From: Micrococcus luteus NCTC 2665
GTDB taxonomy: Bacteria; Actinomycetota; Actinomycetes; Actinomycetales; Micrococcaceae
Length of the DNA: 32,000 nt
NCBI RefSeq assembly: GCF_000023205.1
Contig: NC_012803.1
Span: 2,100,001-2,132,000 of the forward strand
Direction: 5' to 3'
Shown piece after piece: positions 8,034-27,946 of this stretch. Below the pieces are notes generated by a model. The model made no database searches. It was given only the letters and a program-made list of their open reading frames with translations, and was not told the origin of the DNA. The position numbers were made by a program, and so were the translations under genes. Positions within the stretch are counted from its first letter, which is position 1; each line of letters begins with the position of its first letter.

Positions 8034-9488
8034 GTGGAAGCGACAGTGGAACAGATCACAGCGGCCATCACGGCCCTGAACGACAAGTACTGGTACGTCG
8101 TGATGGCGCTGCTCTTCGTGGCCGGGGTGTGGTTCACCATCCGGACCGTGGGCGTGCAGGTGCGCATGCTCCCGGAGATGCTGCGGTCGGTGACGGCCAA
8201 GTCCCAGACCGGGTTCGAGAACGACGGCGTGAGCCCGTTCCGCGCCTTCACCATCTCGGCGGCCTCGCGCGTGGGCACCGGCAACGTGGCCGGCGTGGCG
8301 ATCGCGATCGTGATCGGCGGCCCGGGCGCGGTGTTCTGGATGTGGCTGCTGGCGATCCTCGGCGGCGCCACCGCCTTCGTCGAGTCCACGCTGGCCCAGC
8401 TGTACAAGCAGAAGGGCGCGGACGGCTACTTCGGCGGCCCCGCGTACTACATCCGCGACGGCCTGGGCGCGAAGTGGCTGGCGGCCGTGTTCGCCGTCGC
8501 CATCACCGTGACCTACGGCTTCGTGTTCAACGCCGTGCAGTCCAACTCGATCTCCGAGTCCGTGCAGGCCAACTGGGGCGCGTCCTCCACCACCGCGTGG
8601 ATCGTGGGCCTGGGCCTGGCCGTCCTCACCGGCCTCGTGATCTTCGGCGGCGTGCGCCGACTCTCGGCCGTGACCAACGTGCTGGTCCCCGCGATGGCCA
8701 CGTTCTACATCCTCCTGGCCCTGATCGTGATGGTCGTCAACATCACCGAGGTCCCGGGCATGATCGCGCTGATCGTGGGCCACGCCTTCGGCCTGCGCGA
8801 GGTCGCGGGCGCCGCCGTCGGCATGACGATGGTGATGCAGGGCGTGCGTCGCGGCATGTTCTCCAACGAGGCCGGCATGGGCTCCGCCCCGAACGCCGCC
8901 GCCACCGCGGCCGTCTCCCACCCGGCCAAGCAGGGCTTCGTGCAGTCCCTGGGCGTCTACTTCGACACCCTGATCGTGTGCTCGGCCACCGCGTTCATCA
9001 TCCTGCTCTCCAACCCGGCCTACGGGCGCGGGGAGGCGCTCGGCATGCAGGTGACCCAGGGTGCGCTCCAGCAGGCCGTGGGCGCGTGGGCCGGCCCGGC
9101 CCTGACGGTCATCATCTTCTTCCTGGCCTGGTCCTCCGTGCTGGGCAACACCTACTACGGAGAGGCCAACATCCGGTACCTGGCCGGCCGCCACGCGGGT
9201 CGGGCCATCACCGTGTTCCGCGTGCTCGTGCTGGTGTGCGTGGTCGGCGGCGCGCTGGGCTCCGTGGCGCTGGTGTGGAACCTCGCGGACACGTTCGCGG
9301 CCCTCATGGCGACCATCAACCTCGTGGCGATCATCCCGCTGGGCGGGCTGGCCGTGAAGCTGCTCCGGGACTACGAGCGCAAGCTCAAGGCGGGCATGGA
9401 TCCGGGCTTCCACATCTCCGACCTGCCCGAGGCGCGGAACGTGGCCCTCTGGCGGGACGAGCCGAAGACCTCCCCGCTCGAGGACTGA
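8034..9488 (+). CDS. Alanine/glycine:cation symporter (AGCS family)
   Basis: 484 aa with multiple TM segments. The block GVSPFRAFTISAASRVGTGNVAGVAIAIVIGGPGAVFWMW is characteristic of sodium:alanine symporters. GTG start; a nearby GTG at 8046 is an alternative. Confidence 0.85.
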   Translation: MEATVEQITAAITALNDKYWYVVMALLFVAGVWFTIRTVGVQVRMLPEMLRSVTAKSQTGFENDGVSPFRAFTISAASRVGTGNVAGVAIAIVIGGPGAVFWMWLLAILGGATAFVESTLAQLYKQKGADGYFGGPAYYIRDGLGAKWLAAVFAVAITVTYGFVFNAVQSNSISESVQANWGASSTTAWIVGLGLAVLTGLVIFGGVRRLSAVTNVLVPAMATFYILLALIVMVVNITEVPGMIALIVGHAFGLREVAGAAVGMTMVMQGVRRGMFSNEAGMGSAPNAAATAAVSHPAKQGFVQSLGVYFDTLIVCSATAFIILLSNPAYGRGEALGMQVTQGALQQAVGAWAGPALTVIIFFLAWSSVLGNTYYGEANIRYLAGRHAGRAITVFRVLVLVCVVGGALGSVALVWNLADTFAALMATINLVAIIPLGGLAVKLLRDYERKLKAGMDPGFHISDLPEARNVALWRDEPKTSPLED

Positions 9489-9510
9489 CGCCCCCGCCCT
9501 CCCGCGCGTT

Positions 9511-9575
9511 TCGAGGCGGGATATCGACCCCATCCGGCTGCCGCGGGCGGCCGTGGGGTGGATATCCCGCCTCGA
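9511..9575. terminator. 65-nt near-perfect palindromic hairpin downstream of the symporter gene
   Basis: TCGAGGCGGGATATCGACCCCA (9511-9532) pairs with TGGGGTGGATATCCCGCCTCGA (9554-9575) with one mismatch. The inner loop is also largely self-complementary. There is no T-tract. Confidence 0.35.
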
Positions 9576-9682
9576 TGCATGAGGAGGCGCGGTCTGGACA
9601 CCGTGCGGGGGTCGGGGCCTAGGTTGAGGCGCACCCGACCGGCCACACCCGAGCGGCCGGCACGACGTCCGAGGAGGACACC

Positions 9683-10072
9683 ATGGGCATCCTCTCCAGC
9701 ATCACCCGCACTCTCGGCGGCGGCCGCTCCAGCCGTCCCACGATCGGTGCGCACGACGGCCGGTCCCCCGGCTTCGGGCGGCAGGCCCGCACTCAGGGAC
9801 GCCGGTCCAGCGGCCTGGGCGGTGCCCTCCTGGGCACGCTCGGCGGTCTGGCGCTGCGTGAGCTCTCGCGCCGCGGCGCCGGGGGCACGACGCGCGGGCG
9901 CGGCTCCGGTGCGTACCGCGGCGGTTTCGGACCCTCGGCCCGGTCCACGGGCGGACTCGGCACCGGTCTGTTGGGCGGGCTGCTCGGCGGGGCCCTCGCC
10001 TCCCGCGGCCGGTCCGGTGCCGTCGGCCGACGCACGGCGGGTGGCCGCCGGACCATGGGCGGCGGCTTCTGA
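9683..10072 (+). CDS. Small Gly/Arg-rich hypothetical protein
   Basis: 129 aa. Strong SD GAGGAGGA 4 nt before the ATG. GC3 is mostly high. A strong hairpin follows. The sequence is low-complexity (RG/GG repeats) and I recognise no family. Confidence 0.5.
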   Translation: MGILSSITRTLGGGRSSRPTIGAHDGRSPGFGRQARTQGRRSSGLGGALLGTLGGLALRELSRRGAGGTTRGRGSGAYRGGFGPSARSTGGLGTGLLGGLLGGALASRGRSGAVGRRTAGGRRTMGGGF

Positions 10073-15642: not shown

Positions 15643-15852
15643 TCACTTGAACATCTTCAGGACGTCGCCCAGGCCGACCGTGGTGCGCCGGTAGACGGCG
15701 TTGTAGGCGGCGCGCTTCGGATCTCGCAGCCAGCCCATCCCCTTGCGGCCGTAGCCGGGGATGACCTTGCGCTTGATCGCACGCTTGGCGCGGCCCGTGG
15801 TGCGGGCCTTGATGGACTTCTTCAGGCTGGGCTTGCGGAGACCAATCTTCAT
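15643..15852 (-). CDS. Small highly basic hypothetical protein (69 aa)
   Basis: MKIGLRKPSLKKSIKARTTGRAKRAIKRKVIPGYGRKGMGWLRDPKRAAYNAVYRRTTVGLGDVLKMFK. GC3 is very high in this frame and low in the overlapping frame of ORF 15620..16681. Confidence 0.7.
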   Translation of the reverse strand: MKIGLRKPSLKKSIKARTTGRAKRAIKRKVIPGYGRKGMGWLRDPKRAAYNAVYRRTTVGLGDVLKMFK

Positions 15853-15899
15853 GGGGCGAGCGTACTGGGTGGGGTGGACGGGGTGAGGGGGTCAGCGGA

Positions 15900-16914
15900 C
15901 ACCGGATCCGCAGCACCTGGCCGGGGTGGAGGACTGTGCTCAGCGTGGGCCCGTTCAGGCTGAGCAGCTGAGCGAGCGGCACGCCGGTGGCGCGGGAGAT
16001 CGCGGACCAGCCGCCCGGGACGGCGTAGGCCACCGCGATCCCGCTCAGCGTCTGCCCCGCCTGGACGGTCACGGTCCGGGCGCCGGTGGCGCGGTCCGCC
16101 GCGAGGCGCACCAGCTGCGCGTCGACGCTCAGGCCCTGGGCGCGGGGGTGGATCCGGTCCGCGCGGAAGTCGGTGACGTACCGCGAGGCCGCCTCCCAGT
16201 CCGTCACCGCCACCCGGCCCGGGTAGCGGGCAGCGAGGTCGCGCATGGCCTGCTCAGTGAAGGCCCTCCAGGCGACCGGCCCGGACGCGGTGACCAGCAC
16301 GAGCTCCCGATCCGGGCCGACCAGGTCCATGGCCTGGCGGGCCTGGGCGGCGGCCGTGCCGCCGGTGTTCACGCCCAGACCGAGCACGACGATGTCCCTC
16401 AGCCGGCCGGCGGCCTTGAGCTGCCCGAGGCGGGTGAGGCCCTCGGCGAAGGTGCGGTCCTCCTTAGCGTCCACGGTGATCCCCGGCATCTCCAGGTTCA
16501 TCAGCGAGGTGGATCCCAGTGCGCTCGAGTCCCCGACGACGGTCACGCGTGGCCCCTGCGCCGAGACCGGCATGGGGCCGGAGTAGGTGGTCCCGGTCCG
16601 TGCGGTGGCCGCCGTGTGGATGGAGGAGGCCGGAACCACGATCGCCTGCCCCGCGGCGGAGGGGCATCGTGGACGTGGCACCGTTGGCGGCCAGCAGGCC
16701 GGCGAGCGTCACGCCCAGGCGCGGGGCCTGGAACGCCCACGTGTCCCCTGCCTCGGCCAGATAGGTGCCGGTGCGCAGGCCGTGGAGGCGGTCACCACCG
16801 TAGACGTGGGCTCGGGGGTCGTGACGGCGGCGGCCGGCGTGGCCGTCAGGCGCCGGCGAGGAGCGAGGCCAGCGCGCGGACGGCGAGGAGACGGACAGGG
16901 CGGCGAACGGTCAT
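15900..16914 (-). pseudogene. Secreted LysM - SGNH(OatA-type) - LysM protein gene, disrupted by at least 2 frame breaks and lacking an in-frame stop after the last domain
   Basis: Signal peptide MTVRRPVRLLAVRALASLLAGA starts at 16914 and then hits TGA. LysM-1 (TYLAEAGDTWAFQAPRLGVTLAGLLAANGATSTMPL) is in a second frame. Its end (AGQAIVVPA), the SGNH-like domain (VTVVGDSS...VVLGLGVNT...VTDWE...DRIHP) and LysM-2 (TVTVQAGQTLSGIA...LNGPTLSTVLHPGQVLRIR) are in a third frame (ORF 15620..16681). Confidence 0.6.
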
Positions 16915-16965
16915 GGTCGTGTTCTCGCTGACGAGGCCGCGATCCGACGCGAGTGTAGGGCGGGC

Positions 16966-18207
16966 TCACGATCGCGCGGCCGCCACCGCCTGGGGCCATC
17001 CGCCGAACCGGGTGGCCACGGTGATGTAGCTGGGCGCTCCATTGGCGGCCTGCCAGGACGTGTAGAGCGTGCTGGAACTCGACCCGGTCTCAGTCAGGAA
17101 ACGCCGCATCCACTCGGTGAGCTGCTCGTCGCTGTACCCGGTGTTCTTCCTGGCGTTGGGCAGTCCCCCGGCGGCGGCCACCAGGTCGCCCCACTGCAGA
17201 CCCGCGCGGCGCTGCAGGGTGGTCGCGCTGGGGCACCGGTGCTCCTTGGCCCACGCCGAGTACCGTCCCGACGACAGCGTCGGCCCGAGGTCTTCGATGG
17301 CCCGCCGCACGACATCGATTGCCGACGCGGCGTCGTCGCCCTCGTCGGTCTTGGCCTTCCACTGCCGCCGCTCGAAGACCCCACCGGTCACCCCAGGGAT
17401 GAGCTCCCGGGTGGCGGCCATGCGCAGAGCCGTGTGGCGGAGGTTCTCGAAGGACACGTCCAGACGGTTGCGGATCAACGCATCCGACGGCATGCCCTCC
17501 CGCTCTTGAAGCCACGCCACGAACTCGAGATGGGTGACGGGGCCGTCCGGTGCCGAGAATGCCTCCACGGCCGCAGCCCACAGATCGTCGGTCGTGTATC
17601 TGGACTCCCGTGGCACCGGTTCCGCCTGACGGATTCCAGCGGCGGCGAGTGCTGCGTTCCACCGACCGAACCGGATGGCGACGGTCTGGTGCCCGGGGAC
17701 TCCCCGAGTCCTGGCCCACGCCGTATAGCCGGCCGCCGTCGTCTGCCCGGTCTCGGCGTGGAATTGCCGCAGGAGGTCGAGCAGTTCCTCCTCCGTGGCT
17801 CGCATCGCCGTGGTCCGGCGCCGCGGGTTGGCGCGGTGCAGGTCCGCGCGCTTGCCGAGCAGCTCAGCAACCTGTTCCTCAGCGACACCGAATTTACGGG
17901 CGGCCACCTCCAGACCCACCCCGCGGTTCGACTCAGACCACGCTCGCAGGCCGGCCCGGAGCAAGCTGCGCTCCTCCTGCGCGACAATCCTCCGGTACTC
18001 CTTCAGCTCCGGGACCGTAACCTCGGACTTCCCGTTGATGATCTGCCGGACCGCCTCGCGGGTGACACCCCATTTCTTCCCGATTGCGTCCAGCGTGGCG
18101 CCGCGGGCATAGTCCACGACCATGCTGGTGGTCCGGTCCACCGGAGCGACGTCGCTCCGTCTCACCAGCCCCTCGATCAGACGGCGGCGTGCGGTCGGGA
18201 GGGTCAC
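16966..18207 (-). CDS. HTH protein with four homing-endonuclease-associated (HNH_repeat-type) repeats, no nuclease domain
   Basis: 413 aa. GTG start overlaps the stop of the upstream DUF262/DUF1524 gene (GTGA). Two HTH-like segments (ATLDAIGKKWGVTREAVRQIINGK and GLEVAARKFGVAEEQVAELLGKR). Four ~60-aa repeats end in Y..WA....P...T....FG.W..A...AG (for example YTAWARTRGVPGHQTVAIRFGRWNAALAAAG and YTSWQAANGAPSYITVATRFGGWPQAVAAA). Confidence 0.7.
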   Translation of the reverse strand: MTLPTARRRLIEGLVRRSDVAPVDRTTSMVVDYARGATLDAIGKKWGVTREAVRQIINGKSEVTVPELKEYRRIVAQEERSLLRAGLRAWSESNRGVGLEVAARKFGVAEEQVAELLGKRADLHRANPRRRTTAMRATEEELLDLLRQFHAETGQTTAAGYTAWARTRGVPGHQTVAIRFGRWNAALAAAGIRQAEPVPRESRYTTDDLWAAAVEAFSAPDGPVTHLEFVAWLQEREGMPSDALIRNRLDVSFENLRHTALRMAATRELIPGVTGGVFERRQWKAKTDEGDDAASAIDVVRRAIEDLGPTLSSGRYSAWAKEHRCPSATTLQRRAGLQWGDLVAAAGGLPNARKNTGYSDEQLTEWMRRFLTETGSSSSTLYTSWQAANGAPSYITVATRFGGWPQAVAAARS

Positions 18208-19976
18208 AGCGCGAACCTCTCGAGGGCGCGTTCCACGAGACGGGCCGTCCGCGCCTCGATGTCAGCCGAGGTCCACGTCTCCTTCTCGGCGAGCTCGGCG
18301 TTCAGCGCGAGTCCGTTCCGGTATCCGATGGCCCGCCCTTGCTGGTCGGTACGGTCTCGCTTCCGCTGGAAGGACTGGTTGCCGAGGGTGGAGTTGAAGC
18401 CGGTGATGGTGAGGTTGCCGAGCGTGTGCACGAACCGGCTCTGGGCCTCCGCCGCCGCCTCCGGTCCGCCCAGCGCGTCCACCCATTCCTGCGGGAGGTT
18501 CTCCCCCTGGGGGAGGATGTGCTCAATCGTCCAGACGAACGTCTTGCCGGACTGCGCCCACAGGTCCACCCGGGTCTCCTTGGTCATCGCGTCTTCGGCC
18601 AGCGCGGCCAGCAGGAAGCGGGTCACATCACGGTTCTCCTCGTACACGGGGCCCTCGAGCCGCTCACGGAAGGTCGCATCGCTGGCCGAGGCGGCCACGA
18701 GTGACCCGCGCACGATGGAGGGCAGCTGATCGGGCTCGCTGCCGGCCACCTCGTCGATCACGTCCATGAACAGGCGCGGCAGCGCGTAGGTCGCCGGGAA
18801 GCCGGTCAGGTTGCGTCGCACGAAGAAGCTGACCAGCAGGCGGGCGACGGCGGCCAGATCCTCTTCACTCCAGCCCGCCTTCTCCTGGCGCACCATCAGC
18901 CACATCATCAGCACGTAGGAGGGAGCAGCCTGGGCACGGCGCAGGGCGGCCAGCTCCCGGTCGAGGCTGGTCGGCGCCTCCACGTCCCCGACGCCCGCGA
19001 TGCGCCCGTACACCTGGGCGGCACGCTCCAAGGAGCGCACAGTCCCCTCGAGGTCCTGGTCCAGGAGGGACTCGTAGATGCGGATGAGGTTCTTCTTGGT
19101 GGCGACGGGCGCCAGCTTGACCGGGGGCAGGTCACCGCGGAAGGCGTTGTAGAAGTGGCGGAGGAACCGTTCATGAGTGGCATAGGAGTCCCCGAGATGG
19201 GCGAGGGTTTCGTTCCACAGCTCGAAGGCCTCCTCGACCTCCATCCCTGCCTTCTGCTCCGCCCCCGCCAGGAAGCTGTTCTTGATCAGGTCCACCGGGG
19301 TCAAGGGGACACCGCGGTTGTTGAGCGACTCGAAGAGCACGAACGCGTCGGCCGCGCTGGAAACCTCGATGTTCACGATCAGCGCGCGCCGGGCGGCGGC
19401 CAGGACGGAAAGCGCCGTCGCGCTCACCGGCTCCCCGCGTTCCTCGGCGAGCTCGGTGATGGCTGCGCGGAAGAACCAGAACGCCTTGGCCACTTTCCGG
19501 GAGGGGTAATACGCCTTCTTCTCGGACTTCACCGGCAGGCCGGCATCCTCGAGCATCGCGTGGTAGTCGGCGCGGTTGGCGCCCTGGACCTGAGGGGTCA
19601 GTCGGGGCGCCTTCTCCTCGTCCCGGACGAGCTCACGGCGCAGCGTCATCACCTCGAAGTGAGCGTCCTCGTCCAAGTCCTCGGCGTCCTTCAGGTGCGA
19701 GTGGACGGCCGCCAGCAGGATGGTCAGGGTGGTCAGGCGCTGCTGGCCGTCGATGACCTCCAGAACGGGGCCACTGAGGGAATCCTTGGTCCGGCTGAGG
19801 GTGATGATGGTCCCCAGGAAGTGCTCGTGGTCCGACTCCACCAGGTCGGCGAAGAGCGACTCCCACTGCGCACGGTGCCAGGAGTATTCGCGCTGGTAAG
19901 GCGGGACGACGTAGTGGGCCTTCATGTGGCTGCTGAACAGCTCATGCACGTGGCGAGCCTTGGCGGAGTTGATCAT
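18204..19976 (-). CDS. GmrSD-like DUF262/DUF1524 protein (putative type IV, modification-dependent, restriction endonuclease)
   Basis: Start at MINSAKARHV (aa 204 of track ORF 18204..20585) with AAGGGA upstream. DUF262 motifs YQREYSW and EVIDGQQRLTTLTILL. C-terminal DUF1524 His-Me finger region WTIEHILPQ ... HTLGNLTITGFNSTLGNQSFQRKRD. Confidence 0.8.
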   Translation of the reverse strand: MINSAKARHVHELFSSHMKAHYVVPPYQREYSWHRAQWESLFADLVESDHEHFLGTIITLSRTKDSLSGPVLEVIDGQQRLTTLTILLAAVHSHLKDAEDLDEDAHFEVMTLRRELVRDEEKAPRLTPQVQGANRADYHAMLEDAGLPVKSEKKAYYPSRKVAKAFWFFRAAITELAEERGEPVSATALSVLAAARRALIVNIEVSSAADAFVLFESLNNRGVPLTPVDLIKNSFLAGAEQKAGMEVEEAFELWNETLAHLGDSYATHERFLRHFYNAFRGDLPPVKLAPVATKKNLIRIYESLLDQDLEGTVRSLERAAQVYGRIAGVGDVEAPTSLDRELAALRRAQAAPSYVLMMWLMVRQEKAGWSEEDLAAVARLLVSFFVRRNLTGFPATYALPRLFMDVIDEVAGSEPDQLPSIVRGSLVAASASDATFRERLEGPVYEENRDVTRFLLAALAEDAMTKETRVDLWAQSGKTFVWTIEHILPQGENLPQEWVDALGGPEAAAEAQSRFVHTLGNLTITGFNSTLGNQSFQRKRDRTDQQGRAIGYRNGLALNAELAEKETWTSADIEARTARLVERALERFAL

Positions 19977-20120
19977 GCTGTGGATCCCTTGTGACGGTGG
20001 CCACGTCAAGCGGGTGCGGTGTCCTCCCTTCCTGGTCAGTCGCCCCTTAGGATCGAGAGGCTGACCACGCCCGGCCGATGCCTCAAGCGGGCGCCGCCCC
20101 CTCACCGGAGAGGAGACCCC

Positions 20121-21057
20121 ATGCCGTTGCCGGATTCCCGCTGGCATGCGGTCTCGCCGTCCCCGTTCGAGCATGAGCAGCAGGGCCTGGACATCCTCCG
20201 CCAGATCCTCCCGGACGAGTCCCCCTTCCACGTGTGGACCAACTTCGAGTTCCCGGACGAGGACGGCCAGTGGCATGAGGTGGACGCGCTCGTCCTGGCA
20301 CGCACTCAGCTGATCCTGCTGGAGCTGAAGTACTACTCCGGCACGCTCACGGGCACGGGCCTGCGCTGGGAACGCCCGGGCCACGCCCCGCAGCGATCCC
20401 CCCTGGCCGGCGCCAAGAAGAAGGCGGAACGGTTCCGGAGCCTCCTGGAGCGCACCCTCAAGGCCGCCGAGCCGGGGGCGGCGCGCCAGCGCATCATCCC
20501 GTACGTGGACTACGCGGTGTTCCTCCACCACCCTCGGTTCCGCAACGCGATGGCGCCGACGGACTCCGGCCGGCGTCGTCCTCACCGGTCGCGCGCAGGA
20601 CGCGCTGGCCGACCACCGCGAAGCCGAGGGGTATACGGCGGCCGCAGATCACACGGTCCTCGCATCGACCGCCGACGACCTCCGCTGGTGGACGTGGGGA
20701 GGCGCGGGGGCCAACGCGCTCCTGGTCGCCGCGCTCGAGCAGGTTGCACCGGAGCTGCTGGGCGAAAAGCTCCGATTCGACAACTTCTCCCTCAGGTTGC
20801 GCGGCGACGTCGATGCGGCATCGCTCGGAAGAGCCCTGCGCCAGGCGACGTCGAATTTCGGAGGTGACCTGGCCGGCGTCGACCCGCTAGTCGATGACGC
20901 CGCGGTACGGGGTCTGAAGTTCCACGAGATGCTGCCCTTGGACCTCGCCCGCGCGACACTGGCGGCGCGGCTGGCCGACCATACTGGCGTCGCTCGGGTG
21001 CTGGAACGCCCCGTCCAGATGTTGCGCACCGCAGAGGACGGAAGGATGTGGGGATGA
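20121..21057 (+). pseudogene. NERD-domain protein with a +1 frame switch near 20570 (frameshifted gene or assembly indel)
   Basis: SD GGAGAGGAG. The N-terminal 150 aa are NERD-like (FEHEQQGLDILRQIL...VWTNFEF...GQWHEVDALVLARTQLILLELKYYSG). After ...APTDSG the frame turns Arg-rich with low GC3. The +1 frame carries high-GC3 protein-like sequence (GVVLTGRAQDAL...LRWWTWGGAGANALLVAALEQV...) to the TGA at 21055-21057, with no start codon of its own before 20797. Confidence 0.6.
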
Positions 21058-21058
21058 G

Positions 21059-21379
21059 ATGAACAAACACGACGAGACCCTGGCCCAGCTGCGCGAGTTC
21101 GTCGCCGAACGTGACTGGGCCCGGTTCCACACCCCGGCCAGCCTCGCCAAGTCCATCAGCATCGAGGCCGCAGAGCTGCTCGAGCACTTCCAGTGGACGG
21201 AGGACGGCGCGGACATGGCTGAGGTGCAGGACGAGCTGGCGGACGTGCTGACCTACGCGTTCATGTTCGCGGACCAGATGGGCTGGGACGTGGATGAGAT
21301 CATCCAGGCCAAGCTGGTGAAGACGCGGGTCAAGCACCCGGTGCCGACAGGCGGGGACGAGGAGGCGACGTCGTCATGA
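21059..21379 (+). CDS. MazG-like nucleotide pyrophosphohydrolase (small all-alpha NTP-PPase)
   Basis: 106 aa. LREFVAERDWARFHTPASLAKSISIEAAELLEHFQW ... DELADVLTYAFMFADQMGWDVDEII.AKL matches the MazG-like / dCTP-pyrophosphatase-like pattern (EF..eR.W..fH.P..La..i..Ea.EL.E.FqW ... E.aDvl.Y). The ATG lies 1 nt after the upstream stop. Confidence 0.8.
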   Translation: MNKHDETLAQLREFVAERDWARFHTPASLAKSISIEAAELLEHFQWTEDGADMAEVQDELADVLTYAFMFADQMGWDVDEIIQAKLVKTRVKHPVPTGGDEEATSS

Positions 21380-23328
21380 CCGACCACAACCCCGGGTACA
21401 CACTGGAACGCCTGCCGTTCAAGGGCGCCCTTCCCCCCGAGCAGGAGAAGAACGCGCGCATGCGGGACTGGCCCGCCGTGTACGTGATCGACAATGAGAA
21501 GCAGGTCTACGTCGGCGAGACGACGAATGTCGTCGCCCGACGAGGACAGCACCACATGGACCCGCGCAAGGCTCGCCTGACGACGATGCGCGTGGTGCTT
21601 CATGACGAGTTCAACAAGTCCGCCGCCCTGGACCTGGAGCGCTACCTCATCCAGATGCTCAGCGGCGACGGCGCCCGCGAGGTCCTGAACCGCAACGCCG
21701 GCATGACGGAGTCGGACTACTACGACCGCACGCGCTACCAGGAGATGTTCGCTGCCATCTTCGAGCGGCTGCGGGCAGAGAAGGTGTTCAGCCGCTCCCG
21801 CGAGCAGATCCTCAACAGCACCCTGTTCAAGCTCTCGCCCTTCAAGGTGCTCACGCCGGAGCAGGAGGCATCGCTGCGGCACATCATCCAGCTGCTCGTC
21901 GCCGATGACGACGTCGATCGCGGCCCGCTCGTCATTCAGGGCGGCCCCGGCACCGGCAAGACGGTGGTGGGCGTGTTCCTGGCGAAACTGCTCGTGGACC
22001 TCGCGAACCTCACGGAGGAGGACGTCGAGGTGGACCTCAGCTCCGACCACGACTTCTTCGACCTGTTCACCCACGCCAACCGGAACGCCCTGCTGCGCAG
22101 CACCGAGGGCCGTGGTCTGCGCATCGGGATCGTCGTACCGCAGCAGTCCCTCCGCCAGTCCCTCAAGCGTGTCTTCCGCCGGACGCCGGGGCTGCACCCG
22201 TCCATGGTGCTGTCCGTGTGGAACGTCGGAGACGCCGAGGAGCGCTACGACATCCTGATCGTTGACGAGGCCCACCGCCTCGGTCTGCGCTCGGCGCAGT
22301 CCAACGGCAGTTTGAACAACAAGTACACGGCCATCAACCAGCGCCTCTTCGGCGACGACGACGTCTCCCACACCCAGCTCGACTGGATCACCCAGCAGGC
22401 CAGGGACGTCGTCCTGCTCGTGGACCCGCGCCAGACGGTGCGTCCGGCCGACCTCGACGCCGCGACGATGGACGCCCTCCTCGCGCGGGCGCACGCCGAA
22501 CACCGTCACCACGCGCTGGTGTCACAGCTCCGCGTCAAGGCGTCCGACTCGTACGTCGACTTCTTCGGCAAGCTCCTCCGGGGCGAGCACCCTCCGGCCC
22601 CGGACCTGGGCGAGTACGACCTGCGCTTGTTCACGGACTTCGGCGCGATGCGCGAGGCGATCCGTGCGCGCGACACCGAGTTCACCCTCGCCCGTCTTGC
22701 CGCCGGGTTTGCTTGGAAGTGGCAGAGCAAGGGCTTCCGCAAGGATCCGTCGAAGCCGGACTGGGACATCGAGCTCGACGGGGTACGGATGCCGTGGAAC
22801 GTCGCCGACACCGACTGGGTCGACTCCCCCGGCTCACTCGACGAGATCGGCTCCATCCACACCCTCCAGGGGTATGACCTCAACTACGCCGGCGTCGTCA
22901 TCGGTCCGGACCTGCAGTGGGACGACACGGCCCAGCGGGTGGTCTTCTCCCGTGCCGACTATGCGGACACGGGCGGCAAGAAGAACAACGGCTACCTCAG
23001 CCGCACCTACTCGGACGAGGACCTGCGCGAGTACGTCATCAACATCTACAACGTGCTCCTGACCCGCGGCGTCCGCGGGACCTACCTGTACGTGGTGGAC
23101 CCCGACCTGCACGAGCAGTTCGCCCGCTGGTTCCCGGGCATCGACGAACCCGACGTGACGTCAGCGCCCTTCGGCGTCCCTCCGGGTGGCCGCCCGGGCG
23201 AGGTCCTGCGCGCCGTCGATGTCGGCTACACGGCGGAGGCCGAGTTCATCGCCTCGACGGACGACCTCGAGCAGGCCCGTCGTCGTGCTGAGGAACTCCG
23301 CCGTTCCCGGAAGCGGACCCGGGAGTGA
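21376..23328 (+). CDS. GIY-YIG-like nuclease domain fused to a DUF2075 (Schlafen-type SF1) helicase/ATPase (COG3410 architecture)
   Basis: 650 aa. ATGA overlap with the MazG-like stop. N-terminus VYVIDNEKQVYVGETTNVVARRGQH...LERYL...NRNAG resembles GIY-YIG. Walker A QGGPGTGKT and Walker B ILIVDEAHRL. C-terminal IHTLQGYDLNYAGVVIG and NVLLTRGVRGTYLYVVD are typical of DUF2075. Confidence 0.8.
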   Translation: MTDHNPGYTLERLPFKGALPPEQEKNARMRDWPAVYVIDNEKQVYVGETTNVVARRGQHHMDPRKARLTTMRVVLHDEFNKSAALDLERYLIQMLSGDGAREVLNRNAGMTESDYYDRTRYQEMFAAIFERLRAEKVFSRSREQILNSTLFKLSPFKVLTPEQEASLRHIIQLLVADDDVDRGPLVIQGGPGTGKTVVGVFLAKLLVDLANLTEEDVEVDLSSDHDFFDLFTHANRNALLRSTEGRGLRIGIVVPQQSLRQSLKRVFRRTPGLHPSMVLSVWNVGDAEERYDILIVDEAHRLGLRSAQSNGSLNNKYTAINQRLFGDDDVSHTQLDWITQQARDVVLLVDPRQTVRPADLDAATMDALLARAHAEHRHHALVSQLRVKASDSYVDFFGKLLRGEHPPAPDLGEYDLRLFTDFGAMREAIRARDTEFTLARLAAGFAWKWQSKGFRKDPSKPDWDIELDGVRMPWNVADTDWVDSPGSLDEIGSIHTLQGYDLNYAGVVIGPDLQWDDTAQRVVFSRADYADTGGKKNNGYLSRTYSDEDLREYVINIYNVLLTRGVRGTYLYVVDPDLHEQFARWFPGIDEPDVTSAPFGVPPGGRPGEVLRAVDVGYTAEAEFIASTDDLEQARRRAEELRRSRKRTRE

Positions 23329-23350
23329 CAGCCCCTACCCTCGGGAATCT

Positions 23351-23409
23351 TCTGCGCACCTGACCCTTCTGACCCGGCCACGGCCGCCGAGAAGGGTCAG
23401 ATGCGCAGA
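23351..23409. terminator. Long hairpin (20-bp stem, 19-nt loop) right after the DUF2075 gene
   Basis: TCTGCGCACCTGACCCTTCT (23351-23370) pairs with AGAAGGGTCAGATGCGCAGA (23390-23409) with one mismatch. It starts 23 nt after the stop at 23328. Confidence 0.45.
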
Positions 23410-23525
23410 CGATCCCTGACACACGGCACCACCGCCCCCCCACGCGGCAAATACACAACACTTGCCTTGCGTATCTCACTGAGGTGTGCCTTACTGGTTC
23501 TCGGACCCCCGCCGGAAGGACCCCC

Positions 23526-24353
23526 ATGGCCCACGCCTCCACGCACCCCGCCCATCCGCTGCCGCCCGTGGCGCCCCGTCGTCTGCTGCTGGCCCAGCGG
23601 CTGCTCCGCGGCGAGGGCTCCGTCGAGGTCACGGCCTTCCGCGCCGGCGAGACGCTCACCACGGCCGTCCACGGCGTGAGCGCGGACGGCCGCCTCGTGG
23701 TCGCCCACGTCCCCAACCTCCTCGGTTCGCTCGGCGCGTTCCACACGCCCGCGCCGCTGGACGTGCGCGTGGACGTCCTGCGCGACGCCCTGGACCTCAC
23801 GGTCCCCACCCGCCTGGCGTCCGTGCATCTGCTCGGCACCCTGCGCTGGTGCCGGGACTCGGCCGAGGTCGCGGAGCTGGGGCTGCGCGGTCGCGTCGCG
23901 GACCTCGTGGCCGACGTCGGCCCGCGGGTGCGCGTGGGCGTCGTCGAGACCCAGCGGATCCTGTTGCACGACGTCGACGGCGTCGCCGTGTTCTGCCGCC
24001 ACACCCTGCCGCTCACGTCGCGCGGACTGGTCGACCAGGCCGAGCTCGCAGACCTGGCGGACGACGTGCTGGGCACCGCCCCCGAGGTGCTCGCGGACCT
24101 GGCCGACGCCGTCGCCCTGGGCCTGCTGCCGGGCGAGAGCACCCCGTTGCAGGTCGGCACCGCACCCCTGTCCGAGTCCCCCGCCCACGCCCTCGACGCG
24201 GACGAAGCCGGGGTGACCCTGCTGCGCGTCCGCGATGGCGAGAGCACCGCGGTGCACGTGGCCCTGCCCGGCGCGGGTCGGCTCGACCACAGCCCGCGGC
24301 ACGCCTGGCGGCGACTGCTGGACGCGATCCCGGCGCGGGTCGCCCGCCCCTGA
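23526..24353 (+). CDS. Hypothetical protein
   Basis: Start MAHASTHP after GGAAGGA (aa 15 of track ORF 23484..24353). High GC3 and ordinary amino-acid composition. There is a vague resemblance to DUF2470/PPOX-like actinobacterial proteins that I cannot substantiate. Confidence 0.5.
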   Translation: MAHASTHPAHPLPPVAPRRLLLAQRLLRGEGSVEVTAFRAGETLTTAVHGVSADGRLVVAHVPNLLGSLGAFHTPAPLDVRVDVLRDALDLTVPTRLASVHLLGTLRWCRDSAEVAELGLRGRVADLVADVGPRVRVGVVETQRILLHDVDGVAVFCRHTLPLTSRGLVDQAELADLADDVLGTAPEVLADLADAVALGLLPGESTPLQVGTAPLSESPAHALDADEAGVTLLRVRDGESTAVHVALPGAGRLDHSPRHAWRRLLDAIPARVARP

Positions 24354-24896: not shown

Positions 24897-26270
24897 ATGT
24901 CCCAGCGTACGCGCGCTGCCTTGCCCCTGCCTGCCCACGCCGCTGCCGAGCACCACGTCCGTGCGGCGGCATCGGTGGTGTTCAACCTGGAGGGATACAC
25001 CGTCCTTCAGGCCCTCGACCGGCCACTGGGAGGTAGGCGTGTCGTTGTGGCCGCCGATGCCGCCGAGGGGGCCTGCCCGGGCTGCGGGGTGTTCTCGGGC
25101 CGGGTGCACCAGCGGGTCCGCCAGTCCGTGAAGGACATCCCTGTCGGTGGGGACCTGTTGGAGTTGGTTGTCGTCAAGCCCAGGTTCCTGTGCGCCGAGG
25201 GGGCCTGCCCGCGCCGGACCTTCACGCAGACCACGGACCAGTTGCCGGCCCGGGCCCGGTGTACCACCCGGTTGCGGGAGGCCGTGGTGGCCGCGGTGCT
25301 GGACTCCGGCCGGGCCACCGCGGAAGCCGCCAACGCGCATGGCCTGGCGTGGGGCACCGTCAACGCCGCCATCCTGGGCCACACCATGGTCTTGCCGGAG
25401 GTCGACAAGGTGCCGGTGCGGGCGCTGGGCATCGACGAGCACCGGTTCGCCACCGCCAAGTGGTTCAAACACCCCGACACGGCCGTCTGGTGCCGGGTCG
25501 AGCCGTGGATGAGCACCTTTGTCGTCGCCGACACCGGGCACGTGCTCGGCGTCGTCGACGGACGGTCTTCCCGCAACGTCACCGCCTGGCTGGCCGAACG
25601 CTCCGAAGCCTGGCTGGATCGGCTCGAGGTGGTCGCCATCGATCCCTCGGCCACGTTCCGCACCGCGATCCGCAAGGTGCTGCCGACCGTGGACATCAGC
25701 GTGGACCACTTCCACCTGGTCAAGCTCGGCAACCAGATGCTCACCGAGGTCCGCCAACGCGTGGTGCGCGAAGTCCTGGGCCGGCGGGGCCGCAAGCAGG
25801 ATGCCGTGTGGGCTCACCGGATGTTGCTGCTGCGGGCCGGGGACCGACTCACCGAGGCCGGCCTGCGCCGACTCGAGCACGTCCTGGACGACGATGCCTA
25901 TGAGCAGGTCGCCGCCGCCTGGGCGGTCAAGGAGCACCTGCGGCGGATCCTGAACGCCCCCACCGTCGCAGCGGCCCAGAACGCCCGGATCGACTTCGAG
26001 CTGACCGTAGCCGCCGCAGGACTGCCGGAGGCTGACAGGCTCTCGGCCACCGTGGGGAAGTGGTGGGTCGAGATCAAGGTGTTCATCCGCACCCGAGTCA
26101 CGAACGCCCGCACCGAGGCGGCCAACACGGCCATCAAACAGGTCAAGCGCACCGGCCGCGGGTTCCGCAACCAGACCAACTACCAGTCACGTATTCTGGC
26201 CAGGAGCTTCCGACGGACACGCCGACGCTCCCAGATCCACCCTCGAGCAGGACTCCACGCTCAAGTGTGA
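24897..26270 (+). CDS. ISL3 family transposase
   Basis: 457 aa. N-terminal zinc finger CPGCG...H; LGIDEHRF; VVAIDPSATFRTAI; VDHFHLVKLGNQMLTEVRQRV; C-terminal NARTEAANTAIKQVKRTGRGFRNQTNYQSRIL. Confidence 0.9.
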   Translation: MSQRTRAALPLPAHAAAEHHVRAAASVVFNLEGYTVLQALDRPLGGRRVVVAADAAEGACPGCGVFSGRVHQRVRQSVKDIPVGGDLLELVVVKPRFLCAEGACPRRTFTQTTDQLPARARCTTRLREAVVAAVLDSGRATAEAANAHGLAWGTVNAAILGHTMVLPEVDKVPVRALGIDEHRFATAKWFKHPDTAVWCRVEPWMSTFVVADTGHVLGVVDGRSSRNVTAWLAERSEAWLDRLEVVAIDPSATFRTAIRKVLPTVDISVDHFHLVKLGNQMLTEVRQRVVREVLGRRGRKQDAVWAHRMLLLRAGDRLTEAGLRRLEHVLDDDAYEQVAAAWAVKEHLRRILNAPTVAAAQNARIDFELTVAAAGLPEADRLSATVGKWWVEIKVFIRTRVTNARTEAANTAIKQVKRTGRGFRNQTNYQSRILARSFRRTRRRSQIHPRAGLHAQV

Positions 26271-26276
26271 AGAGCC
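26255..26276. repeat. IS right inverted repeat (IRR)
   Basis: CCACGCTCAAGTGTGAAGAGCC; overlaps the transposase stop (26268-26270). Confidence 0.9.
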
Positions 26277-26284
26277 CCTATGGG
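26277..26284. repeat. Target-site duplication, right copy (CCTATGGG)
   Basis: See the left copy at 24783-24790. Confidence 0.85.
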
Positions 26285-26287
26285 CCG

Positions 26288-27946
26288 ATGTCGCACCTGA
26301 CCGCCCACCCCGCCGTCACCGCCCGGTCACGTCCGCGTCTCCGCCCCTGCCACCCTGCACGGGTGACCTCGCACACTGACCCCGCGCACCCGGCCGCCCA
26401 CCCCGTCTCCCGCCGCACCCTCCTCGGCGGGGCGGGCTTCGTCGTCGCCTCCGCGGCGCTGCTGTCCACGCCAGCCGGCACCGCCCACGCGGCCACCGGC
26501 CCCACGCCGTTCACGCTCGGCGTCGCCTCGGGCGACCCGTGGCCCGACGGCGCGGTCCTGTGGACCCGCCTGGCCGTGGACCCCCTCGCGCTCGACGGCC
26601 TCGGCGGCATGCCGGACCAGTCGTTCAGGGTGGAGTACCGGGTGGCCACGGACGAGGGCTTCCACAAGGTCGTCCGGTCGGGCGCCGTCACCACGGACCG
26701 CACGCAGGGCTACGCGGTGCACGTCACGCTCACCGGTCTGCGCCCCGGCACCGAGTACTTCTACCGGTTCCGCGCGCTCGGCCACCTCTCGCGCGTCGGC
26801 CGCACGGTCACCGCGCCCGCCCGCGGCTCGAACCCGAGCCGCCTCACCATGACGGTCGCCTCGTGCGCCAACTGGGAGCACGGCTACTTCACCGCCTACG
26901 GCCACATGGCCGCCGAGCGTCCCGACCTCATGGTCCACCTGGGCGACTACTACTACGAGATCATGCCGTACGGGTACCCGGTCTCCTCGGGCGTCCCACG
27001 CGCCCACAGGAACGGGGAGTCCCGCACCCTCGCCCAGTACCGGGCCCGCATGGCGCAGTACAAGACGGACCCGCACCTGCAGGACGCGCACGCCGCCGCC
27101 CCGTGGCTCGTGATCTTCGACGACCACGAGCTCGAGAACAACTGGGCGGACGAGACCCCGGAGATCTGGGACCCGAACTTCCTCGCGCGCCGCGCCGCCG
27201 CGTTCCAGGCGTACTACGAGAACATGCCGCTCCGCGCGTCGTCCGTGCCCCGCGGCATCGACATGCAGCTCTACCGCCGCGTCCAGTGGGGCGACCTCGC
27301 CACGTTCCACCTCCTGGACACGCGCCAATACCGCTCGGACCAGGCCAACCTGGACCTGGTGAAGGTCGTCGACGCCGACGCACGGGACCCGCGGCGCACC
27401 ATCACGGGCGCGGCGCAGGAGGCGTGGCTGCGCGAGGGCTTCGAGACCTCGGTCGCCCGCTGGGACCTCATCACGCAGCAGGTGCCGTTCGTGCAGTACG
27501 ACCGCTCCTCCGGCCCGCTCCTGTGGGGCGACATGGACTCATGGGACGGCTACGTCGCCTCGCGCGACCGCGTGGTCAGCGCGTGGACCGCGGCGGGCGT
27601 CCGCAACCCCGTGGTGCTCACCGGTGACATCCACGAGGCCTTCGCCTCGGACATCAAGCGGGACTTCAACGACCTCTCCTCGGAGTCCGTGGGCGTCGAG
27701 CTCATCACCACGTCGATCACCTCGGGCGGCGACGGCTCGGACGCCGCCGCGGAGGCGCTCGCGTGGAACCCGCACATCAAGTTCAACAACGACCTGCGCG
27801 GCTACCTCCGCGTGGACCTCTCCGCCCACATGCTCGAGGCCCGCTTCCGCGTGGTCGACTACGTGAGCGAGCTGGGCTCGTCGGTGCGCACGCGCGCGGT
27901 CTTCGGCGTCGGCGACGGCGAGCATCGGCTCCACCGGATCGCCTGA
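26288..27946 (+). CDS. phoD: Alkaline phosphatase D family protein (PhoD), Tat-exported
   Basis: Twin-arginine signal VSRRTLLGGAGFVVASAALL...AHA. PhoD blocks FTLGVASGDPWPDGAVLWTRL, TEYFYRF, ASCANWEHGYF, HLGDYYYE, FDDHELENNW and VLTGDIHEAF. The first in-frame ATG is at 26288; GTG at 26363 is an alternative start. Confidence 0.85.
   Translation: MSHLTAHPAVTARSRPRLRPCHPARVTSHTDPAHPAAHPVSRRTLLGGAGFVVASAALLSTPAGTAHAATGPTPFTLGVASGDPWPDGAVLWTRLAVDPLALDGLGGMPDQSFRVEYRVATDEGFHKVVRSGAVTTDRTQGYAVHVTLTGLRPGTEYFYRFRALGHLSRVGRTVTAPARGSNPSRLTMTVASCANWEHGYFTAYGHMAAERPDLMVHLGDYYYEIMPYGYPVSSGVPRAHRNGESRTLAQYRARMAQYKTDPHLQDAHAAAPWLVIFDDHELENNWADETPEIWDPNFLARRAAAFQAYYENMPLRASSVPRGIDMQLYRRVQWGDLATFHLLDTRQYRSDQANLDLVKVVDADARDPRRTITGAAQEAWLREGFETSVARWDLITQQVPFVQYDRSSGPLLWGDMDSWDGYVASRDRVVSAWTAAGVRNPVVLTGDIHEAFASDIKRDFNDLSSESVGVELITTSITSGGDGSDAAAEALAWNPHIKFNNDLRGYLRVDLSAHMLEARFRVVDYVSELGSSVRTRAVFGVGDGEHRLHRIA

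Follow-up and report, generated by a model that had tools for sequence, protein, structure and literature searches.

How many systems are encoded by three closely spaced genes on one strand of the Micrococcus luteus NCTC 2665 genome, and does any of them take part in defence? The genes lie at 20121-23328 of the stretch of 32,000 nucleotides (nt) that we analyzed (contig NC_012803.1, positions 2,100,001 to 2,132,000; hereafter the window, which has a G+C content of 73% and to which all coordinates refer). A preliminary description of the locus proposed that a NERD-domain protein (gene 1), a MazG-like nucleoside triphosphate (NTP) pyrophosphohydrolase (gene 2) and a GIY-YIG-DUF2075 helicase (gene 3) constitute one undescribed defence module. 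The signals on which it relied were confirmed by direct reading, namely the strong Shine-Dalgarno sequence GGAGAGGAG (20107-20115, plus strand, five nt 5' of the ATG at 20121), the stop codon TGA at 21055-21057 followed by the ATG at 21059, and the ATGA overlap at 21376-21379; the motifs HEVDALVL...LILLELKYYSG, LRWWTWGGAGANALL, GGPGTGKT and IVDEAHRL are all present. Our analysis divides the locus in two. Genes 2 and 3 (21059-23328) almost certainly form a conserved unit, an autonomous, translationally coupled bicistron that ends in a strong hairpin, and we are highly confident that 20121-21057 is the scar of a deleted type 2 bacteriophage exclusion (BREX)/Pgl system.

The conservation of the pair was followed in 80 loci, which were fetched by alignment of helicase homologues from contigs representing one genome per species and which come mostly from Micrococcales, with some from Propionibacteriales, one from Rhodococcus and one from a Fimbriimonadales metagenome-assembled genome (MAG). 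By tblastn, the MazG-like protein of the window matched 78 of the 80 loci, and in 77 of the 80 a MazG-like gene adjoins the helicase gene, 76 times upstream on the same strand and once downstream (L072). The MazG stop codon overlaps a helicase start codon in 71 of the 76 upstream cases, usually by 14 nt, and a 4-nt ATGA overlap like that of the window occurs in 7 loci. Genes 2 and 3 are neighbours far more often than expected by chance. When MazG homologues labelled Comamonadaceae and Aeromicrobium were taken as the starting point, the helicase was found again, and single matches to the pair occur in MAGs labelled Fimbriimonadales and Comamonadaceae. Clustering of the flanking open reading frames (ORFs) of the 80 loci yielded no further conserved neighbour, the next commonest cluster being present in 12 loci. 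Neither the N-terminal fragment of PglW nor the C-terminal fragment of BrxHI, the two proteins to which gene 1 is traced below, matched any of the 80 loci bearing the pair. Thus, of the co-occurrence that the preliminary description had expected, that of the MazG-like gene directly upstream of the helicase gene was found (76 of 80) and that of the NERD homologue was not (0 of 80). Two loci have a helicase without a MazG-like gene: in L028 (7222-9633) the upstream gene encodes a superfamily 2 (SF2) helicase fused to a sigma-70 domain, with an HD-domain gene alongside, and in L077 a GNAT acetyltransferase gene lies upstream of the helicase gene.

In Bacillota, the pair is found again, with a helicase identity of 26-28%. 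A mobilizable Lactiplantibacillus plantarum plasmid carries genes for a NUDIX protein, a PLD-SF2-DUF3427 enzyme, a MazG-like protein and a GIY-YIG-DUF2075 protein in one same-strand block; the pair is also present on a Bacillus mycoides plasmid and, in inverted order, on a Ligilactobacillus salivarius megaplasmid, where it lies beside type I restriction-modification (R-M) genes and an integrase gene. Among megaplasmids of the B. cereus group, matches to the MazG-like protein were obtained in 101 records and matches to the helicase in 100; in about 50 of the 60 listed records the two genes are same-strand neighbours separated by 23-181 nt. L072, L101, L102 and L116 have the gene order inverted, two of these cases being IMG/VR contigs. 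The association survives inversion of the gene order and spans phyla, and therefore provides strong evidence for functional linkage. The pair is nearly absent from phage genomes (2 IMG/VR contigs and 4 GenBank phage records), and on these numbers a phage-borne origin was rejected.

If genes 2 and 3 form the conserved unit, what is gene 1? The preliminary description was right about its NERD N-terminus (PF08378, 6e-14) and wrong in taking 20121-21057 as a single gene. The stretch consists of two reading frames: frame 0 from 20121 stops at 20865-20867 (248 amino acids; aa), and the LRWWTWGGAGANALL segment (LRWWTWGG) and the TGA at 21055 are located in frame +1. The two frames were joined and the product was scanned against profiles. 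Its residues 5-160 matched the PADLOC profile of PglW (1.1e-46, profile positions 3-156 of 1403) and its residues 144-300 that of BrxHI (3.1e-23, profile positions 548-694 of 698). The NCBIfam model BREX_PglW (1391 positions, cut-off 990 bits) was matched at positions 2-142 with 153.9 bits. The C-terminal region, previously regarded as unrecognised, is thereby identified as the C-terminal domain of BrxHI, the helicase of BREX type 2. A BREX survey of 2026 describes PglW with an N-terminal NERD-REase and BrxHI with an Lhr-like C-terminal domain.

With the repaired chimera of 311 aa as query, a word-indexed search for homologues returned only 3 matches, and an exhaustive HMMER search with the joined product was used instead. 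Among 1.84 billion representatives, the matches cover either the N half or the C half of the product. Proteins of about 1350-1470 aa align through their N-termini with the N half, the best of them being the PglW protein P0124 (1435 aa; 84-86% identity, residues 1-151). The C half aligns at 49% identity with residues 547-708, the C-terminal end, of P0153, a helicase of 712 aa, and also with the C-termini of shorter proteins, many of which are probably fragments. One candidate for a junction-spanning protein, P0123, was rejected: in the alignment it is a fragment of the BrxHI C-terminus, extended spuriously at low identity.

Both halves could be placed at the DNA level. In L092, the contig that bears P0124, a GmrSD gene on the minus strand is followed by pglW, pglX, pglY and pglZ, and the alignment with the window runs from the interior of the GmrSD gene through the intergenic region and the shared Shine-Dalgarno sequence into pglW, where it ends abruptly at 20572. 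The intact pglW of L092 is preceded by an identical GGAGAGGAG; as judged from this alignment, GGAGAGGAG is the putative ribosome-binding site of pglW and not the signal of a three-gene operon. In L109, the gene order is pglY, pglZ, brxD, brxHI, an HNH-repeat gene, the MazG gene and the helicase gene. Between 20566 and 21044-21054, the window aligns with the brxHI of this contig at 71% DNA identity, and residues 560-722 of the 725-aa product of that gene are 74% identical to the remnant in the window. The scar thus comprises a pglW 5' remnant (20121-20572, plus strand; codons 1-150, which encode the NERD nuclease domain of PglW, the BREX type 2 kinase), a deletion junction without strand (20566-20572) at which the two homology tracts meet or overlap and the frame shifts by +1, and a brxHI 3' remnant (20573-21057, plus strand; the last approximately 161 codons, encoding the Lhr-like C-terminal domain and ending with the TGA at 21055-21057). 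A further contig, L113, is a shorter version of the L109 arrangement (99.97% identical). L113 and L114 had been considered as strains that share the MazG protein and have no BREX genes; this was dropped, since L113 matches the L109 arrangement.

When the six BREX type 2 proteins were compared with the whole 32-kb window by tblastn, only PglW 1-151 (20121-20573) and BrxHI 560-722 were detected. Full-length PglW is about 1400 aa long and comprises NERD, kinase, winged helix-turn-helix and iSTAND domains, of which only residues 1-151 are present in the window; of the full-length SF2 helicase BrxHI (725 aa), only residues 560-722 are present, in a frame that differs from that of the pglW part. PglX, PglY, PglZ and BrxD, taken from L092 and L109, gave no tblastn match in the window. 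Given the breaks in homology and these tblastn fragments, we therefore conclude that about 17 kb were lost in one event, the deleted span comprising PglW residues 152-1435, PglX, PglY, PglZ, BrxD and BrxHI residues 1-559. The ancestor carried a complete type 2 BREX/Pgl system (pglW-pglX-pglY-pglZ-brxD-brxHI) between the divergent GmrSD gene and the MazG gene. A single internal deletion of about 17 kb then fused codon ~150 of pglW to codon ~560 of brxHI out of frame, leaving behind an ORF that encodes NERD plus a nonsense tail, and an untranslated brxHI tail. The ORF encoded by the scar (20121-20867, plus strand; 248 aa) has 150 aa of NERD followed by about 98 aa of an Arg/Pro-rich out-of-frame tail. 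The operon-like appearance of the three genes is an accident of the deletion. In this strain, the MazG/helicase pair is probably read through from the orphaned pglW promoter. A scan for sigma-70 promoters in this 73% GC DNA returned 0 promoters, and the matches of a scan for U-tract terminators were no better than in shuffled sequence.

Could the NERD protein, the MazG-like enzyme and the helicase nevertheless constitute one three-gene system, with gene 1 restored by the repair of an error or by programmed +1 frameshifting? The common strand, the tight spacing and the strong Shine-Dalgarno sequence speak in its favour, and the 248-aa ORF was found in identical form (P0121) on a second assembly, the metagenome contig L089. 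The scar is shared with this contig, and is therefore no assembly error of the window record. However, L089 is 99.6% identical to the window across 6.9 kb and represents the same lineage, so that it is no independent case. In two metagenomic proteins, P0130 (187 aa) and P0198 (467 aa), the N-terminal part of PglW is likewise fused, in frame, to the last ~80-125 residues of BrxHI; however, their junctions differ, at PglW residues ~109 and ~340, respectively. Given these junctions, the two proteins are independent deletions of whole BREX type 2 systems and not members of a family, which suggests that pglW'-'brxHI fusions are a recurrent route of BREX type 2 loss. A frameshift caused by a sequencing error was ruled out, since the same sequence is found in L089 and the breakpoints of homology coincide with the change of frame; programmed frameshifting was considered as an account of gene 1 and likewise rejected. 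Since gene 1 is a PglW fragment joined to a BrxHI fragment, the locus does not hold three intact genes. At the DNA level, the homology with the undisrupted pglW and brxHI genes breaks off abruptly at 20566-20572. Homologues of PglW-N/NERD or of BrxHI-C are absent from all 80 pair-bearing loci, a result that the preliminary description itself had named as counting against its proposal, and the three-gene system is therefore refuted; we regard any rescue of it as extremely improbable. The scar itself is ordinary biology, and it illustrates how a whole type 2 BREX system can be lost by a single internal deletion. It also carries a warning for annotation, in that ORFs with a NERD domain and an 'unknown C-terminus' can be fusion stumps.

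What, then, do the two genes of the conserved unit encode? The identification of gene 2 (21059-21379, plus strand), the first gene of the pair, as that of a 106-aa MazG-like protein was borne out by a match to PF12643 (6.6e-18; 65.2 bits against a cut-off of 27), which makes it an all-alpha NTP pyrophosphohydrolase related to DCTPP1/RS21-C6. Sequence matches in the PDB are the pyrophosphatase 4qgp (9.5e-16) and DCTPP1 (1.5e-10), and close relatives of the protein carry the annotation Micrococcus luteus. In an alignment of 22 family members, which includes sequences from Bacillota and viral contigs, E36, E39, E59, D62, W20, W46 and Y66 are invariant, and the EXXE...EXXD metal-binding motif is present as E36-A-A-E39 and E59-L-A-D62. 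These residues align with E63, E66, E95, D98, W47, W73 and Y102 of DCTPP1, which we take, from the RS21-C6 literature, to bind metal and 5-methyl-dCTP. DCTPP1/RS21-C6 (XTP3TPA) and the archaeal pyrophosphatase 4qgp belong with gene 2 to the same all-alpha MazG fold family, at about 35-45% identity over about 90 residues. To our knowledge, the DCTPP1 gene is not coupled to a nuclease-helicase gene, whereas gene 2 is.

Gene 3 (21376-23328, plus strand) encodes a 650-aa protein with a GIY-YIG nuclease domain (aa ~33-110) and a superfamily 1B (SF1B) helicase of the DUF2075/SLFN group 3 (aa ~185-575), as had been proposed. The helicase part is matched by SLFN-g3_helicase/DUF2075 (PF09848) with 1.9e-66 and 225 bits. 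Against Pfam GIY-YIG, the whole protein scores 20.3 bits, below the cut-off of 22.6, and the isolated N-domain 24.2 bits, above it; PF01541 matched 15 of the 15 family members tested. The GIY-YIG motifs are V35-Y36-V37 and Y45-V46-G47, spaced 10 residues, and the secondary structure of the N-domain in the AlphaFold2 model (strands 34-39, 43-49 and 70-76; helices 52-60 and 81-98) fits the beta-beta-alpha-beta-alpha core of GIY-YIG. The sequence matches of the N-domain in the PDB are weak, and all are GIY-YIG nucleases (I-TevI, T4 endonuclease II, SLX1 and UvrC); no PD-(D/E)XK nuclease match was found in this domain. Invariant in the helicase family are Y36, Y45, G47, R55, H59, E88, N105, G189-T196 of Walker A, E298 and R564. 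With the residues of Walker A, Walker B and motif VI thus conserved, the SF1B ATPase motifs are intact, and the catalytic residues, among them the Arg, Glu and Asn of the GIY-YIG domain, are invariant in both proteins of the pair. A PDB sequence search with the helicase family matched solely the Walker A of HelD. The AlphaFold2 model of gene 3 (mean predicted local distance difference test, pLDDT, 88; predicted template modelling score, pTM, 0.85) gave Foldseek matches to the SF1B helicases RecD, RecD2, SLFN11, Dna2, Upf1 and Dda. Thirteen nt 3' of the helicase stop codon, a long hairpin with 30-nt arms (23341-23419, plus strand) is formed by an inverted repeat of 87% complementarity, with a folding energy of -56.5 kcal/mol (z = -9.4); it aligns in the relative L090 as well and is probably the terminator of the pair.

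Is this pair a system that has already been named? The preliminary description did not recognise the three-gene combination as a named system, which stands for the pair and fails for gene 1, a remnant of a deleted BREX type 2 system. No system model in PADLOC v2 covers both proteins, which also counts against a role in defence. The MazG-like protein matches no PADLOC v2 family, and NCBIfam has no specific model for either protein. The helicase has only weak, domain-level matches in PADLOC v2, to PDC-S14, PDC-S41, AbiO and Nhi. The Nhi match (E 5.3e-5, 20 bits) is confined to residues 158-203, the Walker A region, the relatives of gene 3 reach at most 33 bits over part of the profile, and neither gene 3 nor its relatives gave a full-length match to the Nhi profile of PADLOC v2. 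Nhi (SERP2475) of Staphylococcus epidermidis and 'Nhi-like' (Millman et al. 2022) are validated defence proteins that combine a nuclease with DUF2075, and the predicted structural homologues of Nhi are Dda, Upf1 and Dna2. Gene 3 resembles Nhi in joining an N-terminal nuclease and a DUF2075/SF1B helicase core in one polypeptide, and Dda, Upf1 and Dna2 are also among its Foldseek matches. The two differ in the nuclease, which is PD-(D/E)XK in Nhi and GIY-YIG in gene 3, and in that Nhi acts as a single gene, whereas translational coupling to a MazG-like pyrophosphatase gene is nearly constant for the helicase of the pair.

Comparison with other systems gave similar mixtures of likeness and difference. 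With BREX type 2, the likeness is confined to the scar: 20121-20572 is a true pglW 5' end and 20573-21057 a true brxHI 3' end, and the flanking GmrSD gene is a typical auxiliary; however, with only ~150 and ~161 codons surviving and pglX, pglY, pglZ and brxD gone, this is a remnant and not a system. The modification-dependent enzymes with DUF3427 (the McaZI group; Lutz et al. 2019, PMC6765204) include DUF3427 fusions that restrict T4gt, and the same work reported DUF2075 NTPases beside DUF3427 enzymes as well as the existence of GIY-YIG-DUF2075 fusions. This neighbourhood recurs in 9 of our 80 loci and on the plasmid; however, Lutz et al. 2019 (PMC6765204) did not mention a MazG-like partner or treat the pair as a unit, and the neighbours in the window, GmrSD and a BREX scar, are unlike the DUF3427 enzyme setting that they described. 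Gene 3 shares the Pfam family PF09848 with the helicase domain of the group III Schlafens (SLFN11, SLFN5 and SLFN13), and SLFN11 and SLFN14 are among the top structural matches of its model, but it lacks the Schlafen RNase domain (AlbA_2). It is this RNase domain, and not a PF09848-type helicase, that defines the bacterial Schlafen defence systems reported in 2025-2026. DefensePredictor lists MazG domains among predicted, unvalidated defence domains. In the literature searched, we found no paper on DUF2075 together with MazG, and none on Schlafen together with GIY-YIG. The pair is best read as an unnamed variation on the Nhi-type nuclease-helicase, in which a partner acting on the nucleotide pool is added.

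What might such a pair do? We propose that the helicase, driven by ATP, would track along foreign or aberrant DNA and that the GIY-YIG domain would cut it, as in Nhi, and that the MazG-like partner would hydrolyse dCTP-type nucleotides, probably 5-modified dCTP. Phages that build DNA with modified cytosine might thereby be starved, or nucleotides salvaged from degraded modified DNA might be kept out of the host chromosome. We give this mechanism an even chance, and consider it equally balanced whether the MazG/helicase pair acts in defence at all. More tentatively, and with odds somewhat on the unfavourable side, the bicistron may be an undescribed, widespread anti-phage system of Actinomycetota chromosomes and Bacillota plasmids that combines a nucleotide-pool enzyme and a nuclease-helicase in one unit. 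In that case, the MazG enzyme would destroy the modified dCTP of the phage or would prevent self-restriction through salvaged nucleotides, the nuclease-helicase would degrade the invader, and pairs of NUDIX protein and DUF3427 enzyme would represent a parallel design. Taken as a whole, a BREX scar beside a separate MazG/helicase unit with a candidate anti-phage role is the best explanation, which we hold to be slightly more probable than its alternatives together. If the pair does defend, it would provide an Nhi-type nuclease-helicase with an obligate partner that acts on the nucleotide pool, would link pool sanitation to modification-dependent restriction, and would give a bacterial context for the helicase domain common to human Schlafens.

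The genomic neighbourhood bears on this question in both directions. A type IV PLD-SF2-DUF3427 enzyme lies at most one gene from the pair in 9 of the 80 loci (Microbacterium, Arthrobacter, Pseudoclavibacter, Nocardioides and one MAG), and genes for Dcm, Vsr, Z1, NUDIX, NERD and PD-Lambda-1-like proteins also occur near it. A census of near versus far neighbours matched 180 versus 91 PADLOC families, counted per family and not per protein; type IV enzymes, Dcm/Vsr/Z1, PD-Lambda-1 and NERD appear only among the top 25 families of the near set. In several lineages, the pair thus lies among defence genes. Several results weigh against a role in defence, however. The control genes 7-10 kb away include defence genes too, which makes the enrichment near the pair suggestive only. 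The immediate neighbours in the 80 loci are mostly housekeeping genes (TetR regulators, ABC transporters and dehydrogenases), and the context in Aeromicrobium is purely housekeeping. The relatedness of the helicases mostly tracks taxonomy, and across Micrococcus relatives the pair holds the same chromosomal site at 69-97% identity; both patterns fit a stable operon of accessory or housekeeping function better than a fast-moving defence system. Finally, we infer the substrate of gene 2 and the target of the gene 3 nuclease from homology to DCTPP1 and from the neighbouring genes. As a separate observation, a NUDIX gene and a PLD-SF2-DUF3427 gene stand beside the MazG/helicase pair in L103 (1285-6680, the L. 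plantarum plasmid), L056, L007 and L037, a single block thus holding two parallel couples of 'NTP pyrophosphatase + nuclease/helicase'.

These points lead to the possibility that the pair is a housekeeping operon for genome maintenance, in which the pyrophosphatase would clean the pool of non-canonical deoxynucleoside triphosphates (dNTPs) and the helicase-nuclease would process damaged or stalled DNA, with GIY-YIG acting as in UvrC/Slx1; the defence genes would merely gather alongside, at a site that is a permissive integration hotspot. The stable, syntenic position among Micrococcus relatives, the congruence of most helicase relatedness with taxonomy and the many loci with housekeeping neighbours only are all as expected on this account. 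DCTPP1-type enzymes are classical house-cleaning enzymes, and MazG homologues are annotated 'dCTP diphosphatase'. On the other hand, the pair in Bacillota is carried on mobilizable plasmids beside R-M, HNH and McrBC-like genes, it repeatedly adjoins type IV restriction enzymes, and its architecture matches that of the validated defence proteins Nhi and Nhi-like. In addition, some of the nearest helicase relatives cross genera (Rothia, Arthrobacter, Rathayibacter and Brevibacterium at 71-75%), further cross-taxon relatives being Rhodococcus with Cryobacterium and a Fimbriimonadales MAG. We therefore consider a housekeeping role rather unlikely, though clearly the most serious competitor of an anti-phage role.

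The close contact with restriction genes raises another possibility, namely that the pair is a dependent accessory layer of neighbouring restriction systems (GmrSD, DUF3427 enzymes, type III R-M or BREX), for example by removing modified dNTPs released by the nucleases of these neighbours, and would be idle without them. The distances are indeed short: in the window, a single nt separates the brxHI stop codon from the MazG start codon, and a type III res gene ends 38 nt 5' of the MazG gene in L093. The same-strand block of NUDIX, DUF3427 enzyme, MazG and helicase on the L. plantarum plasmid and the DUF3427 enzyme (cluster 4) adjacent in 9 of the 80 loci are of the same kind. However, the partner system varies by locus, most of the 80 loci have no restriction-type gene beside the pair, the same being true of L091, L081, L105 and L107, and the pair is still intact in the window after the loss of BREX. 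Such a dependence is improbable in our judgement, and we retain the candidate anti-phage unit beside a BREX scar as the preferred reading.

What lies upstream of the pair differs among Micrococcus relatives. In the window, a gene for a GmrSD-family type IV restriction enzyme (18207-19976, minus strand; GmrSD_N 1.3e-35, GmrSD_C 9.4e-19; PADLOC Orf5/HEC-06/mREase_IV) is divergent from the scar, and the same gene stands beside the intact pglW of L092; GmrSD is a common BREX auxiliary according to the BREX survey of 2026. This gene is part of an inserted defence islet, and not of the MazG/helicase pair. A gene for a 413-aa protein with helix-turn-helix and HNH-repeat domains (16969-18207, minus strand; PF18780 HNH_repeat, 1.8e-17) belongs to the same islet and abuts the GmrSD gene without a gap. 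In L109, an HNH-repeat/sigma70_r4 relative of this protein is encoded between brxHI and the MazG gene. The 413-aa protein may be a conserved accessory of GmrSD and BREX. Relative to L091, whose helicase is 83% identical, the insertion spans 15853-21071 of the window (blastn; no strand), and in L091 about 140 bp separate an enoyl-CoA hydratase gene and a small ORF from the MazG gene. This upstream slot is occupied by GmrSD and type III R-M in L093 and L085, by BREX type 2 in L092 and L109, and by GmrSD, the HNH-repeat protein and the BREX scar in the window and L089. From these alignments, a variable defence islet is inserted upstream of a pair that is constant at its site in Micrococcus relatives.

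Two overlapping ORFs lie at the left edge of the inserted islet (15643-15891 and 15894-16681, minus strand). A small ORF, conserved in L081, L091 and L093 (62-69 aa) and without a Pfam match, overlaps in another frame a long ORF whose sole domain is LysM at 15905-16069. On the other side of the pair, 3' of the hairpin, a 289-aa ORF (23484-24350) has no match in Pfam, PADLOC or NCBIfam, and L093 has a 275-aa counterpart in the same place. Between this conserved ORF and a PhoD phosphatase gene lies a gene for an ISL3-family transposase (24897-26270; DDE_Tnp_ISL3, 1e-57), an insertion that the close relative L093 lacks. The longest PhoD ORF (26060-27946) overlaps the 3' end of the transposase gene, and the true PhoD start is probably later. 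In L081, whose helicase is 72% identical, a HipB/HipA toxin-antitoxin pair (8518-9923) directly follows the helicase gene on its 3' side, and the downstream flank of the pair is therefore variable too.

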